Below are positions 1,527-13,368 of a DNA stretch of 18,809 bases, in pieces; the stretch's first letter is position 1; every line of letters starts with the position of its first letter. This DNA comes from Photorhabdus cinerea. Lineage in GTDB: Bacteria > Pseudomonadota > Gammaproteobacteria > Enterobacterales > Enterobacteriaceae. The position numbers and the translations under genes are program-made. The stretch is taken from assembly GCF_011189575.1 (NCBI RefSeq), contig NZ_PUJW01000039.1:1-18809 (forward strand), given 5' to 3'. The notes below the pieces were generated by a model. That model was not told the DNA's origin, searched no databases, and worked only from the letters and a program-made list of their open reading frames with translations.

Positions 1527-2480
1527 TTACTCTTTATTCATTCCATCATCTTGTTCTGTTTCTAAAATTAATTTCGGATGAACGGTGTCAACTAAGTCAT
1601 AAAATTGCTCAGGGGTTTTTGATATTTTAAGCAAAGTGACAATAGATGCTAAGTGCTCTCTGAGTTTTGGGTGCCCAATATCATCAGTTAGCCACTGGTG
1701 TAATTTTGCTTTTCTCTCTGATTGAGAAGCCGCTTTTTTTAATTCAGGTAATAAATCGGGGGCTAGTCGGCTATAAACAACGTTGTTTGTGACGGTGCCA
1801 ATGAAGCTTGGTCTCCAGTTCTTCTTTCCCGCAGGAGGGTAATCAAGACCGTAAATTCTGAAAAGCCCTTCGTAATAATCTACTGGGAAAGTGCTTACCC
1901 AAGGTTTCAGTTCCTTAGCTACAAATGCTTCTAAAATTTTAGCCAGAGCATCACGTTCTCGATCTCTTTGATAACCAGTAGCTTCATCAACAAGTGCTAT
2001 TGCTCCAACCCTTGCAAGCGCTTTATAAAGTGCATTGGCTTTTATAGCTGTATTAATATGATTTCTTTGTTTTAATACACCCGCTTTATCCGCCTCTATC
2101 CATACCTCACATATCGCAGGTAAAAGTGTGACATCAACACCGTAAGCAGCACCACCTCCCGTTCTATAAACAATTGGCTCTGCTAATTCTCTCCTTAAAT
2201 CATCTGGAATGAACTCATCTAATTCGCCAGCTTGAAGAACGTAAGGAAGTTGTCCGGGTCTTCCATTTGGAATCCATCTAGGCATTTTGGAGCCAATGGA
2301 AACACCAAACGTTTCAGCAAGTCCCCCAGTACCCTGCATAGAAATAACCCTTTTGCCATCGGGCAGTACGGCACATTGAACACCATTTGCTGCCATTACC
2401 CCAGTATGAGTGGCTTTTGGTGCTCCACGGATAATAGCGGACATAGCTGATGCTTTACGTGCTCTTTCTTTTGTGTTCAT
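1527..2480 (-). CDS. P63C-domain protein (moron between Q and the holin)
   Basis: This is a 317-aa ORF. The central and C-terminal region (ALVDEATGYQRDRERDALAKILEAFVAKELKPWVSTFPVDYYEGLFRIYG...WRPSFIGTVTNNVVYSRLAP) matches my recollection of the phage P63C domain family. It has its own AT-rich upstream region and its own terminator. Confidence 0.65.
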   Translation of the reverse strand: MNTKERARKASAMSAIIRGAPKATHTGVMAANGVQCAVLPDGKRVISMQGTGGLAETFGVSIGSKMPRWIPNGRPGQLPYVLQAGELDEFIPDDLRRELAEPIVYRTGGGAAYGVDVTLLPAICEVWIEADKAGVLKQRNHINTAIKANALYKALARVGAIALVDEATGYQRDRERDALAKILEAFVAKELKPWVSTFPVDYYEGLFRIYGLDYPPAGKKNWRPSFIGTVTNNVVYSRLAPDLLPELKKAASQSERKAKLHQWLTDDIGHPKLREHLASIVTLLKISKTPEQFYDLVDTVHPKLILETEQDDGMNKE

Positions 2481-2841: not shown

Positions 2842-2934
2842 GTAAATTGATGCCAGAATAAGCGACTGGCGGCACATGCCCCTATCTGCTATCGTTAAAT
2901 CGCCAAAAGTAACCATGCAAACGAGGAAAATTAG

Positions 2935-3099
2935 ATGGGAAAAGTAATCAAAACAAATAAGTTTATAGGTGACAGTATGCCACCTGGACTTGCCAGAAAA
3001 ATATACGAGCAAGCCAAACAGCAACCACAACAATCACCAAATAAACCAAATGAACAATCTCCTGCTTCTTCGAGTGGAGGTTCTAGTAAAAACCAGTAA
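2935..3099 (+). CDS. Small hypothetical protein (54 aa), first gene of the antisense cassette
   Basis: It is below the track cutoff. A GAGGA SD lies about 8 nt upstream of the ATG at 2935. The translation is MGKVIKTNKFIGDSMPPGLARKIYEQAKQQPQQSPNKPNEQSPASSSGGSSKNQ, with a low-complexity Q/P/S tail. It ends 16 nt before the next gene. Confidence 0.4.
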   Translation: MGKVIKTNKFIGDSMPPGLARKIYEQAKQQPQQSPNKPNEQSPASSSGGSSKNQ

Positions 3100-3115
3100 A
3101 AAATAAGGATAATTT

Positions 3116-3562
3116 ATGAGCCGAGAAAACCTGCTATATCTAATCTACTATTCATACCAGCTTCACATGATGTTTAGTGTATTACTCGGTAGAATAGATA
3201 AAGTACTTTCATTTTTTCTACTCTTACTCGGCTCGTCCGTTATTGGTAACCTTGGGAATCAGGTCATTATCGGTATTGCAATAGCAGCCATTACTGCGCT
3301 TAGGATGGCATTTTCATTTGAGAAAACAGCCGAATCAGCCAGAAAACAATCTATACGCTATCTAAACCTATATACCATTCACGCTCTTACTGCTCCTGAA
3401 CAGGAGTTAGCAAACTATGTTTCCGACATGCAAAATGACGATCATATTGTTTGGAGTCCTTTAGTTAATCCGGCAGACATAATCACAAGAAAACATCTTG
3501 GTGAGCCAGTAGACATAAAACTTACCCGTTGGGAAAGATTTATGTCATGCATAGCCAGATAG
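3116..3562 (+). CDS. Two-TM membrane protein, SLATT-like architecture (148 aa)
   Basis: An AAGGA SD precedes the start. The layout is an N-terminal helix, two adjacent TM helices (VLSFFLLLLGSSVIGNL and VIIGIAIAAITALRMAF), then a helical cytoplasmic tail (FEKTAESARKQSIRYLNLY...). This resembles SLATT 2TM effector domains as I recall them, but the family assignment is unverified. Confidence 0.6.
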   Translation: MSRENLLYLIYYSYQLHMMFSVLLGRIDKVLSFFLLLLGSSVIGNLGNQVIIGIAIAAITALRMAFSFEKTAESARKQSIRYLNLYTIHALTAPEQELANYVSDMQNDDHIVWSPLVNPADIITRKHLGEPVDIKLTRWERFMSCIAR

Positions 3563-3588
3563 TGAATAAACCATTCTGTTTATTCAAA

Positions 3589-3613
3589 TAAAAAGGCTAC
3601 GCATTGCGTAGCC
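3589..3613 (-). terminator. tR'-like terminator of the short pR' transcript (hairpin also abuts the 3' end of the plus-strand cassette)
   Basis: There is a perfect 9-bp inverted repeat, GGCTACGCA-T-TGCGTAGCC. A U-tract (TTTTTATTT) follows it only on the minus strand. It lies about 160 nt downstream of the predicted pR' start. Confidence 0.7.
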
Positions 3614-3689
3614 CGGAATTGATGCCACATCAGCCATTAGACAGACTGAAACTTTTATCTGAGAACGGGGGATGTGGGCTTTATATATG

Positions 3690-3711
3690 AAAAAACCCCG
3701 AGGAAACGAGG
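3690..3711 (-). terminator. Candidate early terminator downstream of pR'
   Basis: The minus strand reads CCTCG-TTTCCT-CGGGG followed by TTTTTT. The stem needs a G-U pair, so it can form only in the minus-strand RNA. The stem is short. Confidence 0.4.
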
Positions 3712-3737
3712 CTTAGGATTCTTTTGCTTTCAACGAA

Positions 3738-3814: not shown

Positions 3815-4630
3815 TTAAAAAGAAATAAATTCTCTCTTTGTTAATTCTGATAAAATATAATCAGCACATTCCTCCTCTTTAAAGCATTCACTTACTAACC
3901 GTTCAAACAATGGTTGATATTTGTCATAGCAGGTTGTTTTAGATATCCCTGTTAGTGGCTTTATTACTTCAAAGACTTCTGTAAATTTCAGTCTTGAATA
4001 TCCACGCCCTGAGCATTTAGGACATACTTTGTAAATCGGTACACTTTGCAACTTGGTCTGCTTTTCATCCAGAACTTGCCCACGTCCATTACAGCGACAA
4101 GAATGACTCACAGTACCCTTCCCTTTGCAAGACCTGCAAAGCACTCTACATGTTTCTTCTACCTCCCGAATTGAGGTAATAAAACGCTTAGGTTTTATGT
4201 TTAATGCCTTAGCAAGCATTCCTTCACTACTTCCGTATTTTGTAGTGAACTTACGAACGGAGATAAACCCACCTTCACAATCAGAACACGGCTTCTTGCT
4301 GGCGGCACTTCTCGCATAATCCTGAAATGCATAATTTGCGAGTAATTGCAGAACATTTTGCTTAACATTCTCATCAAGCTTATCAATGGCACTGTGTTTG
4401 TGAACCTGAGTCAGTGCATATTGATAGAGACTCTCCACCGCTTCATCTGAGCTATTGATCCCCTGTTTCGCCAAAAACAGTTCAATACCAAGCCTCGCTT
4501 TTGCGGACGCCAACCCTAGCGCGGCCATCACATCGGTAATTGAGAATGAATCAGTAGCAGTTGCGGCTGGAGAGTCACTAAACATGATCCCTTTGGGTGA
4601 AAAATACTTCGGTAGTAATTCAAGGTTCAT
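3815..4630 (-). CDS. Q: Late-gene antiterminator Q (long, zinc-finger type)
   Basis: The N-terminus MNLELLPKYFSPKG...ITDVMAA...LFLAK and ANYAFQDYARSAASK resemble phage-82-type Q proteins as recalled. It has four Cys pairs: CSDCEGG, CRSCKGKG, CRCNGRG and CPKCSGRG. The likely start is the ATG at 4630, after a GAGGTGG SD, because the track start at 4660 adds 10 implausible residues. Its position between the nin region and pR' is as expected. Confidence 0.85.
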   Translation of the reverse strand: MNLELLPKYFSPKGIMFSDSPAATATDSFSITDVMAALGLASAKARLGIELFLAKQGINSSDEAVESLYQYALTQVHKHSAIDKLDENVKQNVLQLLANYAFQDYARSAASKKPCSDCEGGFISVRKFTTKYGSSEGMLAKALNIKPKRFITSIREVEETCRVLCRSCKGKGTVSHSCRCNGRGQVLDEKQTKLQSVPIYKVCPKCSGRGYSRLKFTEVFEVIKPLTGISKTTCYDKYQPLFERLVSECFKEEECADYILSELTKREFISF

Positions 4631-4833
4631 TTTCCCACCTCTAATAAAACTGAATGACATTTGTCATACTTAGTTGAAAACATGACTGAGTGTTTTTTGC
4701 CCCTGACTCTCCGATCATGAATAACTTTCAGTGAACCATATTTGCATTGCAAAACAGCAAATGACCTGCCTGTGATTCCACTTCTGAAGCGAGCATCTTC
4801 TATCGCTGCTTCAATATCAGTGAAGATTGTCAT
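4627..4833 (-). CDS. Hypothetical nin-region protein (68 aa)
   Basis: An AGGAG SD lies 9 nt upstream. The stop overlaps the Q start (ATGA) and the start overlaps the ninG end, so it is packed within the operon. I recognise no family. Confidence 0.55.
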   Translation of the reverse strand: MTIFTDIEAAIEDARFRSGITGRSFAVLQCKYGSLKVIHDRRVRGKKHSVMFSTKYDKCHSVLLEVGK

Positions 4834-5416
4834 TGCTTAAGCTCCTGAGCTTCTCTTTGTAGTAATCGCGGATCTGCTCGTAATCATCACGTTTCCATTT
4901 CGGCAAAGCATGATGAGACATCAATCTGTTGAATCGCTCTTGCCCAATTTTCTCAATCAGACAAGGTTTATAATTAATTATATTTCCCGATAAGTGATTA
5001 TTACAGGGGGCGCATTGCTTATGAACATTATCTTCATCAAATCTCAATTCTGGATGAGCTTTAATTGTTAGATAATGCCCTGCGTGATATTGCCCATTAT
5101 GAAATCTCCCACAACTAATACATGGCTGGTACTTATCTCTTTCTCTGATAAATGCATTAAACGCCTGCTGTGCCTGATTTCTAAAATAAGAGAGTGGCTT
5201 TACTGCTAACTTGCGTGCTTTAAGTTTATCTTTTTTCTCTGCTAATTCTTGTTGCTGTTTCTTTTTAAGTTCCCGCTCTGCTTTATCTCTGTCTCTATTC
5301 CGCTTCTTAATTGCTAATTCCGCGCCATGTTCTGGATTACACCAATAAATATTCGAATACTTTGGCATAAACCATTCGCAACATATTTTACACTTTCTCC
5401 TCACCGGCTTTTTCAT
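4817..5416 (-). CDS. ninG: NinG/Rap recombination endonuclease
   Basis: [40 protein letters not shown]...AGHY...[20 protein letters not shown] closely parallels lambda NinG ([40 protein letters not shown]...). Confidence 0.9.
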   Translation of the reverse strand: [199 protein letters not shown]

Positions 5417-10786: not shown

Positions 10787-11245
10787 ATGAAGAAGATTCC
10801 ATTGACAGATAGTCAAATTGATGACGCACAACGTCTCAAAGCGATTTATGAAGCGAAGAAAAAAACATTGGGGCTTTCCCAAGATATATTGGCTGAAAAA
10901 ATCGGAATGGGTCAAAGTGGTGTCACGCAATTATTAAATGCAAAAAATGCAATAAATGTATTCCATGCAGCAAAGTTCGCTAAAGTTCTTGAAATCAATA
11001 TTGATGACTTTAGCCCCTCTCTTGCTGCTGAAATCGCAGAATTGGCAAAATATATCGTTGATAAAAATGGAAAGAATGAGATATCTAAACGTTTAACTCA
11101 AGAACAAGAAGAATTGCTTAATATTTATCATGGACTGCCAAGCGAAGAAGCTCAAAAATTTCTACGCGAGATGAAAGCCAAGAAAGCACATTTTGATAAA
11201 ATTTTTGAAGAGATGCTTGCGAAGAGGGGCAGTAAAGCAGGTTAA
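10787..11245 (+). CDS. cI: CI-like repressor: lambda-CI-type HTH domain with a short helical tail and no S24 peptidase domain
   Basis: The first ~90 aa (PLTDSQIDDAQRLKAIYEAKKKTLGLSQDILAEKIGMGQSGVTQLLNAKNAINVFHAAKFAKVLEINIDDFSPSLAAEI) align with the lambda CI NTD. The protein ends at 152 aa, with no Ala-Gly site or Ser/Lys dyad region. Confidence 0.9.
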   Translation: MKKIPLTDSQIDDAQRLKAIYEAKKKTLGLSQDILAEKIGMGQSGVTQLLNAKNAINVFHAAKFAKVLEINIDDFSPSLAAEIAELAKYIVDKNGKNEISKRLTQEQEELLNIYHGLPSEEAQKFLREMKAKKAHFDKIFEEMLAKRGSKAG

Positions 11246-11442
11246 TGATATAAATTTCAAGTGCAAATATTAACGTGTGAAATTGTTACATTTGTCATGT
11301 TTTTAATAATCAAAGTGTTTCCCGTTCGCGGGGATAATGGCTGTCGAGACTATGCAGCCGCATAAATAGCCGCAAGGTATCCATTAACAAGAAACCAAGT
11401 GTGAGATAAAAACCAATTTATTCAATCCAATAGGAATACTTG

Positions 11443-12294
11443 ATGAAAATAAACTTTTATGCGATCTATTCTCAAAATCAGCGCACTAAAGACAAGTACA
11501 AGTTAGATCTGCTAGATTTACTGAATAAAAAAATTATTGAGCCAAAATCTCATGCTTTAGATTGTGAAACTCACCATCTTTATTTACATCGTATTGATGA
11601 CAAAACGTTTCTTTTTACAAAAACCAGTGATAGCGAGTTAATAAAAAAAATTAACAGATCAAATTCCTCTGTGAAAGACATCAGGGACAGCCTTACTGAA
11701 GACGAATCATTAGGGTTTCCCTCTTTTATCTTCATTGACGGGAATGTGATGGGGTTTGCCTCTTCAATGTACGGCCCTAGAACAAGGGAACTAGCTGAAT
11801 TCGTAAAAAATAAAAACCTTATTCAGCATAAACACCACTATATGGTAGCAGAGCCATTGATGAGAGATATGTCAAAAGATGATGCTCTTAAAATGGATTT
11901 CATTGGTAGGACCACACTAAGAGTTGAGACAGGTAACAGAATATGTAGTGAAATACTAAAAGGGTTAGGCTGCAAAAAAATAGAAGAAGAATTACTCGAC
12001 GGGTTGGAAATTATTATAAAACCCAAAAGAAACAAAGATATAAAAGGCATAACTAAAGATATTATAACCAATAAAAACAATTCATTCAGTGATGTTCATA
12101 TCAAAGCCAGAGAAGAGGCGGCAGATATACTAACTGAGTACTATCTCTCTGGCAAAGGACATCTAGGCGCCAACTTATACAAAGCATCCAATGCAGATGT
12201 TGCTGAAGAAATCCAGTATTGCTTCATTCGAATGAAGACATCTATAATAAAAAGTTTTGATCAAACGTTAGGTGATGAGCTGAAACAAACTTAA
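11443..12294 (+). CDS. rexA: RexA homologue
   Basis: The ATG is at 11443 (the track starts at a TTG). HLYLHRIDDKTFLFTKTSDSELIKKINRSNSSVKDIRDSLTEDESLGFPSFIF, FIGRTT, IKPK and DILTEYYLSGKGHL parallel lambda RexA as recalled (YLYIHKIDGKTFLFTKTNDKSLVQKINRSKASVEDIKNSLADDESLGFPSFLF...). It lies downstream of cI, as in lambda. Confidence 0.85.
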   Translation: MKINFYAIYSQNQRTKDKYKLDLLDLLNKKIIEPKSHALDCETHHLYLHRIDDKTFLFTKTSDSELIKKINRSNSSVKDIRDSLTEDESLGFPSFIFIDGNVMGFASSMYGPRTRELAEFVKNKNLIQHKHHYMVAEPLMRDMSKDDALKMDFIGRTTLRVETGNRICSEILKGLGCKKIEEELLDGLEIIIKPKRNKDIKGITKDIITNKNNSFSDVHIKAREEAADILTEYYLSGKGHLGANLYKASNADVAEEIQYCFIRMKTSIIKSFDQTLGDELKQT

Positions 12295-12306: not shown

Positions 12307-12744
12307 ATGAGTAGAAAACACAAGGTTAGACTAGCCTTTATCCTCATATTAGTACCCTACTTATTAGTGATCTTGGCTTGCTGCGTGTTTAAGCATTACC
12401 AGCCCGAGCTTTCATTCACAAAGAATAGAGAGGTGCTAGGCGCGGCAATGAGTTCTTATGCTGGAACTACAATAGCAATACTGATAGCAGCCCTGACGTT
12501 TGTTATTGGGCTAAGGGGAAGAAATATAGCTAAACTTGAACGCTATGGATACATGACATCTGTAATTATTATGTATTCACTTAGTTTTGTTGAGCTTGGT
12601 ATTCTTTTCTTTACAGGAGTGCTTTTGATGTCGAATCTGGAAGGGATACCTCTGTCATCGATAGCTATAATCATAGCCGCCTCATCCTTCATGCATATCT
12701 GCTTTCTACTAATTCAACTATTTAATTTCTCTAAAGAACAATAA
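12307..12744 (+). CDS. rexB: RexB homologue (4-TM membrane protein)
   Basis: SSYAGTTIAILIAALTFVIGLRGRNIAKLERYGYMTSVIIMYSLSFVELGILFF parallels lambda RexB (SSYAGTMIAILIAALTFLIGSRTRRLAKIREYGYMTSVVIVYALSFVELGALFF). It is 145 aa with four hydrophobic helices. Confidence 0.85.
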   Translation: MSRKHKVRLAFILILVPYLLVILACCVFKHYQPELSFTKNREVLGAAMSSYAGTTIAILIAALTFVIGLRGRNIAKLERYGYMTSVIIMYSLSFVELGILFFTGVLLMSNLEGIPLSSIAIIIAASSFMHICFLLIQLFNFSKEQ

Positions 12745-13056: not shown

Positions 13057-13368
13057 ATGAACGCATACAACAACGGCGCATACCACAACAACGCATACCA
13101 CAACGGCGCATACTACAGCTACACATACAACAACAAAGCATACTACAACAACACATACTACGACAACGCAACAATGTACGTAGATAAATTCACGGGTAAG
13201 CAATATCTCGTACAAAACCGCAACAGCGGAAGAGTTACACAGTATGCACCAAACGTACAGGTGTATCACGACTGGTCATGTGAAGATGGCGGCAAATTAT
13301 GCACTACAGTTTTCAAAAGCCGCAAAGAACTAAATAGCTGGCTTCGCATGATGGGATTCAAGAACTAA
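13057..13368 (+). CDS. Hypothetical protein with an N-terminal Asn/Tyr-rich pentapeptide repeat region (103 aa)
   Basis: A GAGGA SD lies 9 nt upstream. The N-terminus is MNAY-NNGAY-HNNAY-HNGAY-YSYTY-NNKAY-YNNTY-YDNATMY, followed by a non-repetitive 60-aa C-terminus (DKFTGKQYLVQNRNSGRVTQYAPNVQVYHDWSCEDGGKLCTTVFKSRKELNSWLRMMGFKN). It is the first ORF after pL. Confidence 0.55.
   Translation: MNAYNNGAYHNNAYHNGAYYSYTYNNKAYYNNTYYDNATMYVDKFTGKQYLVQNRNSGRVTQYAPNVQVYHDWSCEDGGKLCTTVFKSRKELNSWLRMMGFKN
13060..13179 (+). repeat. About eight tandem 15-bp degenerate repeats (GCATAC[C/T]ACAAC[A/G][A/G]C type)
   Basis: It can be read directly: aacgcatacaacaac ggcgcataccacaac aacgcataccacaac ggcgcatactacagc tacacatacaacaac aaagcatactacaac aacacatactacgac. 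The region is CA-rich and in frame with the CDS. Confidence 0.8.

Follow-up and report, generated by a model that had tools for sequence, protein, structure and literature searches.

The window analysed here, an 18,809-nt stretch spanning positions 1 to 18,809 of contig NZ_PUJW01000039.1 of Photorhabdus cinerea, is a lambdoid prophage, and between its late antiterminator gene and its lysis genes lies a two-gene cassette read on the plus strand. The cassette consists of an open reading frame (ORF) of 54 amino acids (aa) at 2935–3099, followed after a 16-nt gap by an ORF of 148 aa at 3116–3562, as seen in both the ORF list and the sequence. Both ORFs are exactly where a first-pass annotation of this DNA had placed them and, as it also described, they are antisense inside the Q-dependent late unit. 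The minus-strand neighbours are NinB, NinG, the late antiterminator Q (3815–4660; Pfam Antiterm PF03589, 5.5e-52), a P63C-domain gene, a lambda S-type holin (1030–1368; Pfam Phage_holin_3_1, 3.4e-31) and an endolysin (614–1033); late transcription must cross the cassette before it reaches the holin, the late unit's first lysis gene.

Directly downstream of Q on the minus strand is the sequence TTGACG-17-TATCGT (3790–3762; 9/12 positions match), which we assign as a pR'-like late promoter from the organisation of lambdoid phages. The first terminator-like hairpin downstream of it is at 3714–3693 (minus strand), and a second minus-strand terminator, with a 9-bp stem containing six GC pairs and a T-run (3614–3594; z = -5.4 on the minus strand), abuts the 3' end of the cassette and is probably the distal tR'. 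The T-run of this terminator is present on the minus strand only, and the plus strand reads as a hairpin without a U-tract. On the other side, terminator B (GGTCACACTTTGGTGTGGCC followed by TTTTTC; 2841–2822, minus strand) is located between the 5' end of the cassette and the downstream late genes. The hairpins at 3594–3614 and 3693–3714 and that at 2822–2841 thus bracket the cassette with T-runs restricted to the minus strand, in agreement with the earlier description of genes enclosed by leftward terminators. In the window as a whole we found 11 terminator-like sites, compared with 4.0 expected.

The two genes recur as a pair in 9 further Enterobacterales genera and in Vibrio and Cobetia, which upholds the first-pass view of them as a unit. 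The pair is antisense to Q and the holin in Morganella morganii, Providencia, Sodalis, P. viridis, phage EKP1 and Phytobacter and, in a search from the small-ORF side, also in Proteus mirabilis and Yersinia enterocolitica; that search gave paired loci only, in the two lineages examined. Antisense placement inside a lytic operon is seen in 12 of 13 independent contexts, which include Q–holin gaps with three Q families, early operons of P2/186-like prophages and a pL-like operon, and the only constant neighbour of the large gene across all 13 is the small upstream ORF. The Q families beside the pair (PF03589, PF06530 and PF06323) are unrelated and the holin families (PF05106, PF16080 and PF04971) differ, so that the cassette is a mobile unit that has repeatedly entered, or been exchanged through, the Q–holin gap. 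Some prophages have the cassette in this gap and others have unrelated genes there, a presence/absence pattern typical of morons. Distant members of the family (23–30% identity) lie antisense beside Q in a metagenomic phage (one member), antisense in the P2/186-like early operon of enterobacterial and Vibrio prophages (two members), and antisense in the pL-like operon of Cobetia (one member), and they have a short, hydrophilic, often Pro-rich upstream ORF that ends 6–16 nt before the start codon. The prophages concerned have other defence cargo, including RexAB in the window and a ParE/helix-turn-helix (HTH) pair beside the cassette in P. viridis, and those of relatives also carry SIR2-STAND, AIPR, GmrSD and HEPN. 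In P. viridis (locus L015, 6607–7292, plus strand) the cassette is followed on the same strand by the ParE-family toxin gene and the HTH gene, and the Q–holin gap there consists of two antisense modules in tandem.

Comparison with the orthologues of Morganella, Providencia, Sodalis and phage EKP1 shows that synonymous sites are saturated in both ORFs, with dN (the nonsynonymous rate) between 0.09 and 0.67; wherever dS (the synonymous rate) is computable, dN/dS is 0.07–0.36 for the small ORF and 0.05–0.23 for the 148-aa ORF. This pattern of substitution shows purifying selection on both ORFs, which are therefore genes and not chance ORFs. The small ORF is preceded by a Shine-Dalgarno sequence, GAGGA (2923–2927), 7 nt before its ATG, and its product combines a conserved core, with the consensus GDSMPPGLAxxIYEQAKQQ or GDSMPxGLxKxIYEQAKQQ, with a variable Q/P/S/T/N/G-rich tail that has a K-x-Q terminus. 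It is conserved in Morganella, Providencia, Proteus, Sodalis, Yersinia, Enterobacter and phage EKP1, and has no family match in Pfam, PHROGs, PADLOC or NCBIfam. An AlphaFold2 (AF2) model built from 19 homologues has an overall predicted local distance difference test score (pLDDT) of 64, with a single helix at residues 19–28 (pLDDT 75–81) and a low-confidence, predicted disordered tail at about 50.

A second Shine-Dalgarno sequence, AAGGA (3105–3109), is located within the 16-nt gap and serves the 148-aa ORF, and in most relatives the stop codon of the small ORF overlaps the Shine-Dalgarno of the large one (CAGTGAGGAnnnATG). The two ORFs thus appear, from this arrangement, to be translationally coupled. 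In distant family members the upstream micro-ORFs are Pro-rich, with the sequences PRPAPAPKPEP, KPEPPKDEE, PPPPPPP and PTPTKPVEKPTSP (L029, 4911–4991; L035, ~4916–4981, from an internal ATG of ORF 4883–4981; L036, 4868–4984; L028, 4839–4991), and translation of the downstream membrane protein may therefore be under a stalling-sensitive control of the EF-P type.

The 148-aa product (3116–3562) is a predicted inner-membrane protein, 100% identical to NCBI protein LGZ99_23570, in which an N-terminal helix and a GRIDK motif are followed by a two-transmembrane (2-TM) hairpin and a helical tail of about 80 aa. Hydropathy places two adjacent hydrophobic segments at residues ~30–47 and ~49–67, and the AF2 model (pLDDT 79) is all-helical, with helices at 3–39, 49–66, 68–89 and onward, in support of the helix/TM/TM/helical-tail layout read from the sequence in the first-pass annotation. 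The GRIDK motif is invariant and the loop between the TM segments has 3–5 residues with an invariant GN; the distribution of Arg and Lys suggests that both ends of the protein are cytoplasmic (N-in/C-in). It matches phrog_6315 (function unknown) at 2.5e-21, as do 99 of 99 aligned family members. A family profile search of 1.84 billion cluster representatives recovered 161 clusters, nearly all of them 145–180 aa long and matched over their full length, which indicates a stand-alone family, and its members are labelled hypothetical in every source.

The two-TM hairpin flanked by helices is also the architecture of the SLATT superfamily. SLATT proteins are predicted to be toxins that form pores and have been proposed to act on the inner membrane, and the way in which SLATT effectors become activated is not yet settled (bioRxiv 10.64898/2026.04.29.721553). 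Among the 99 family members, NCBIfam SLATT_4 matches 37 (best E 2.2e-5), SLATT_1 matches 12 (best E 4.5e-5) and SLATT_fungal three, and the next most frequent NCBIfam family matches six; these E-values are modest. In PADLOC-DB v2 the 148-aa protein itself matches RTasSLATT alone (E = 0.035), and neither cassette protein has a significant match to a component of a known anti-phage defence system. The only PADLOC matches common to more than one family member are to 2TM effector models of cyclic-oligonucleotide-based anti-phage signalling (CBASS), PDLC00712 (8/99, best 7.6e-5) and PDLC00690 (2/99), and to reverse transcriptase (RT)-associated SLATT models (eight members in all); the four single-member matches are to three further CBASS 2TM/4TM effector models and Csn2. 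SLATT proteins are enriched among the weak fold matches to BFVD viral models: of the top 36, nine are annotated as SLATT, with probabilities of up to 0.98–0.99, and matches to giant-virus SLATT proteins have E of ~0.1–1. No match was found in the PDB by fold or by profile. The recurrence of SLATT matches across the family argues for remote homology, not membership, and the 148-aa protein is probably a distant SLATT relative, or is at least built alike, with membership not established.

The most conserved part of the locus is the noncoding leader. This region of ~85 nt upstream of the small ORF (2848–2934) is ~80% identical from Photorhabdus to E. coli, despite saturation at synonymous sites. 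Its core, TCTGCTATCGTTAAATCGCCAAAAGTAAC (2885–2913, plus strand), fits an extended -10 element of the form TnTGnTATnnT at 2885–2895, the remainder being the putative start of the 5' untranslated region (UTR), and T-n-T-G-n-T-A-T-n-G-T-T-A-A-n-T-C-G (2885–2902) is invariant in 15 loci with different cargo genes. The element TnTGnTATnGT lies 40 nt upstream of the first ATG and includes the putative -10 hexamer TATCGT (2890–2895); it matches the extended -10 at -15 T, -14 G, -12 T, -11 A, -10 T and -7 T, with variation limited to -16, -13 and -9. The motif is unique in the window, where 0.01 chance matches are expected, and it is correctly spaced relative to the Shine-Dalgarno sequence and the ATG. 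This conserved element is probably the cassette promoter, and it largely removes the weakness conceded in the first-pass annotation, that no convincing promoter could be identified upstream. A transcript starting ~7 nt past the -10 is predicted to have a 5' UTR of ~33 nt containing the GAGGA ribosome-binding site. The first ~20 putatively transcribed bases are highly conserved, and the leader also contains a conserved stretch, TAAATCGCCAAAAGTAAC.

Two hairpins are associated with the leader. Hairpin A, a palindrome of GCCAG-N9-CTGGC (2852–2870), overlaps the -35 region of the putative promoter; compensatory variants (GCCAG/CTGGC versus GCCGC(C)/(G)GCGGC) preserve its stem, and the loop is 4–9 nt long. 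Terminator B is conserved in position and its stem pairs covary, including U-G pairs that are valid on the minus strand only; of the 80 viral contigs listed, 62 have a terminator-like motif (a regular expression for an A-run and then a G+C-rich stem start) no more than 100 nt upstream of the leader. When the leader alignment is folded, the supported structures are limited to terminator B, hairpin A and one weak helix of 4 bp. We considered other interpretations of the CTGGC palindrome and rejected them: alignment inspection shows that the -12 GC of a sigma-54 promoter is absent and that the half-sites are wrong for LexA, and an operator for a dimeric repressor is not compatible with a covarying stem whose spacer can be anything from 4 to 9 nt long. 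A hok/sok-like cis-antisense small RNA on the minus strand of the leader is also unsupported, despite a stable single-sequence fold (z = -3.35), and we saw no minus-strand promoter in the leader from which an antisense RNA could be made.

Searches recovered the leader from 10 species-representative genomes, from 269 of 5426 complete E. coli genomes (~5%) and from at least 80 viral contigs in IMG/VR, and a holin homologue is located on the opposite strand within 900 nt upstream of it in 58 of 75 viral contigs. Judged from these sequences, the SLATT-like pair is one of several alternative cargoes in a conserved, holin-proximal and putatively outward-firing expression slot. The gene pair also occurs without the leader, in Yersinia, locus L028, and P2-like and Cobetia prophages. 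In the E. coli slot (L016, L017 and L034) the leader (L016, 3999–4086) precedes a 53-aa Pro-rich ORF (L016, 4086–4247, plus strand) that ends in FVGDSADSVIEHIKKQPR, recalling the GDS motif, and whose 3' end overlaps a convergent 189-aa multi-TM ORF on the late strand (L016, 4216–4785, minus strand); both are hypothetical in RefSeq. We considered the 189-aa membrane ORF as a candidate relative of the 148-aa protein and rejected it, as the two are unrelated. In Proteus mirabilis a 170-aa gene without a Pfam match (L124, 3210–3722, plus strand) lies between the holin and the cassette leader, and its product resembles by eye that of a 165-aa ORF in viral contig L083, which comes first after the leader there and is a singleton in blastp clustering. 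If this kinship is true, cargoes can stack in the slot.

We propose that the cassette is a self-contained two-gene operon, or moron, that is carried by temperate phages and transcribed in the lysogen. From the conserved extended -10 promoter-leader beside the holin, polymerase would move rightward, leaving the holin behind and meeting the Q-dependent late transcript head-on. Unmodified polymerase from pR' would halt at the terminators at 3693–3714 and 3594–3614 and would not collide with transcription of the cassette; after induction, Q-modified polymerase would traverse the cassette in the antisense direction and continue past terminator B as far as the holin, and this read-through would silence the cassette through collision or antisense RNA. 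The 2-TM protein may act on the inner membrane, as proposed for SLATT-type effectors, and the small cytoplasmic protein, with its conserved helix and apparent translational coupling, may restrain, sense for, or regulate the membrane effector. The antisense placement would then protect the phage's own lytic cycle from the cassette product. Expression at the lysogen stage is the most likely because the cassette opposes lytic operons almost everywhere, and such consistent placement makes sense if the product harms the lytic cycle of its carrier, as expected of an exclusion or abortive-infection effector. We infer that the cassette is a module for superinfection exclusion or abortive infection that acts at the membrane, is produced in the lysogen and is silenced by convergent antiterminated transcription, a tentative reading that we place just short of an even chance. 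A bolder form strikes us as possible, and rather doubtful: that temperate phages have in the micro-protein and its PHROG-6315 partner a new and widespread SLATT-like system for abortive infection or exclusion, one that stands alone and gains self-immunity through constant head-on embedding in a lytic operon, the antiterminated or early transcription of the resident phage switching it off, and that the leader is, separately, a portable 'launch pad' for rotating lysogen-stage cargo of lambdoid phages.

Several observations weigh against the exclusion or abortive-infection reading. The relationship to SLATT proteins is below every curated SLATT threshold (Pfam SLATT_1-6/fungal, NCBIfam NF0336xx), and the 148-aa protein itself scores 14.8 bits with SLATT_4 (cut-off 55) and 13.8 with SLATT_1 (cut-off 41). 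Pfam has no match for this protein or its relatives, nor for any of the 99 family members (E ≤ 0.01), and a word-indexed search with the family profile reached no Pfam-annotated SLATT protein and no other Pfam-annotated protein. The best Foldseek match among BFVD viral models has an E of 0.11, with TM-scores of 0.35–0.53, and is not significant. The SLATT-like character proposed in the first-pass annotation is therefore retained only as a remote relationship below threshold. No SLATT-type partner, whether SMODS cyclase, SLOG, TIR or reverse transcriptase, is encoded in any of the 13 contexts. The putative promoter has a poor -35 region and a simple consensus promoter scan did not detect the site; the poor -35 accounts for its having been overlooked both by that scan and in the first-pass annotation. 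The leader is not specific to this cargo and precedes at least 10 unrelated first ORFs in the viral contigs listed, and the terminator scan found no plus-strand terminator between the end of the cassette at 3562 and Q. Finally, the one exception to antisense placement is a rearranged Arsenophonus phage-plasmid; in Arsenophonus nasoniae phage-plasmids (L013/L014, 5800–6459) the cassette is co-oriented with the holin and the ATG of the small ORF is changed to ATA, while a 152-aa large ORF is intact. These phage-plasmids may constitute a natural experiment on the need for the small protein.

An alternative explanation is that the cassette is an addiction or maintenance module of the toxin–antitoxin (TA) type, in which a small labile protein neutralises a membrane toxin and the pair serves to stabilise the prophage or phage-plasmid and not to block other phages. 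The gene order, small gene first and membrane protein second, and the tight coupling are as in TA operons, the cassette adjoins the ParE/HTH TA pair in P. viridis, and it is carried on Arsenophonus phage-plasmids together with RelB/YafQ and partition genes. However, no DNA-binding or antitoxin domain can be recognised in the small protein, and the loss of its start codon in Arsenophonus with the large ORF intact would be lethal if it were an essential antitoxin. The searches revealed neither the DNA-binding antitoxin nor the known toxin family of a type II system, giving no match beyond phrog_6315 and a small protein composed of a helix and a tail. TA and abortive-infection roles can also coexist, and we regard the TA-like explanation as unlikely. 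We hold it to be similarly unlikely that the cassette encodes a lysogenic-conversion factor that alters host membrane physiology, in stress tolerance, symbiosis or virulence, with no role in conflicts between phages. Such a role would suit the hosts, most of which are associated with animals or insects (Photorhabdus, Sodalis, Arsenophonus, Morganella, Providencia, Proteus and Yersinia), and a precedent is provided by lambda bor, a conversion factor that is the classic case of an antisense gene next to the lysis genes. The family is nonetheless also present in prophages of marine Vibrio and Cobetia, its only recurrent similarities are to immune 2TM effectors, and the large protein has neither a signal peptide nor a surface-exposed domain, with only ~3–5 residues in the inter-TM loop.

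The properties of the leader suggest a further explanation, in which the holin-proximal antisense promoter is itself what is selected, its outward transcription, with the help of terminator B, either insulating the holin and late genes from leaky transcription or interfering with pR' and Q, and the ORFs are interchangeable passengers. This is consistent with a leader that is more conserved than any of its varied cargo, with the proximity of an opposite-strand holin in most of the viral contigs, and with the lack of a plus-strand terminator before pR' and Q. It is difficult to reconcile with strong purifying selection on the gene pair and with retention of the pair architecture where the leader is missing, and these two observations indicate that the cargo has a function of its own, whatever the promoter also does; we consider the passenger explanation distinctly improbable. 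An accessory role in lysis, as an antiholin-like or lysis-timing factor, is very improbable in our judgement. The cassette does adjoin the holin in most enterobacterial loci, and the 2-TM topology recalls class II holins and antiholins, but the holin partners belong to unrelated families, the antisense orientation precludes co-transcription with the lysis genes, and some members are in P2/186-like early operons and a pL-like operon, far from any lysis gene. A lysogen-stage exclusion or abortive-infection module remains the reading that we prefer.

Comparison with known systems shows where such a module would resemble them and where it would not. The SLATT 2TM effectors associated with SMODS or SLOG, including those of CBASS-type systems and of RT systems such as DRT10/UG17 and DRT3, are like the cassette protein in being small and helical with a central 2-TM hairpin, and like the cassette they are carried on mobile elements and prophages. 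The cassette differs from these systems in having no cyclase, SLOG, TIR or RT partner and no noncoding RNA, its sole partner being a disordered protein of 26–54 aa, and in the placement of its family antisense inside lytic operons. Lambda bor and Hendrix-type morons are, as proposed for the cassette, independently transcribed accessory genes in the late region beside the lysis genes, and bor also opposes Q-dependent transcription and is presumed to be expressed in the lysogen. However, bor is a single lipoprotein gene downstream of Rz, whereas the cassette is a two-gene operon upstream of the holin that lacks its own plus-strand terminator and has a putative promoter-leader common to many other cargo genes. 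Lambda RexAB, P22 SieA and HK97 gp15 are likewise prophage-encoded modules with a membrane component; they are made in the lysogen and are thought to depolarise the membrane or to block injection. The cassette proteins have no sequence relationship to them and occupy a different genomic slot, and RexA is a 280-aa sensor whereas the cassette partner is a tiny disordered protein. The hok/mok/sok type I TA system is similar in that a candidate membrane toxin may depend on a short upstream frame ending at its ribosome-binding site, but the upstream ORF of the cassette does not overlap the large one and is itself conserved as a protein, we found no antisense RNA gene or promoter at the cassette, and the 148-aa protein is three times larger than Hok.

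Other features of the window lie outside the cassette. The P63C-domain gene between the cassette and the holin (1527–2480, minus strand; 317 aa, phrog_2384, function unknown) follows an AT-rich stretch (GC 0.28) in which a promoter-like site (2568–2539) matches at 10/12 positions, and it is bracketed by minus-strand terminators, terminator B and a further one at 1497–1480. It looks like a second moron, co-directional with the late genes. The earlier description of the late region was correct for the minus-strand neighbours but omitted this gene and the further terminator. The RexA homologue (11440–12294, plus strand; PADLOC 5e-106) and RexB homologue (12307–12744, plus strand; 4e-51) lie downstream of a CI-like repressor gene (10787–11245) and constitute a classical lambda-type abortive-infection pair. 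A tandem repeat at 13060–13174 (period 15/30, ~7.7 copies) is located inside an ORF at 13057–13368 (plus strand) and encodes an N/Y/A-rich sequence, NAYNNGAYHN.... Searches of the window with Rfam (E ≤ 1) and for tRNAs gave nothing relevant, and blastn of the region against phage records gave just two short matches, which led respectively to the conserved leader and to phage EKP1.

Lambdoid late regions are already known to carry antisense accessory genes of the lysogen stage, such as bor, and SLATT-type effectors are known as well. Within the searchable literature we found nothing describing the module under the leader sequence, SLATT in prophages, or a lambdoid Q–holin defence hotspot, and neither there nor in the Pfam, NCBIfam, PADLOC and PHROG annotations did we find this family with its obligatory micro-protein, its antisense-embedding rule or the shared holin-proximal promoter-leader. 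Should the cassette prove to be a defence or toxin system, SLATT-type effectors would gain a minimal architecture consisting of a membrane effector and a micro-protein of ~50 aa with no enzyme partner, and the cassette would be a concrete example of a prophage that shields its own lytic cycle from its own immune cargo by convergent transcription. The holin-proximal promoter-leader points to a cargo slot that had gone unannotated and in which new lysogen-stage functions could be sought, and the cassette family is common in the prophages of clinical Proteus, Morganella and Providencia.

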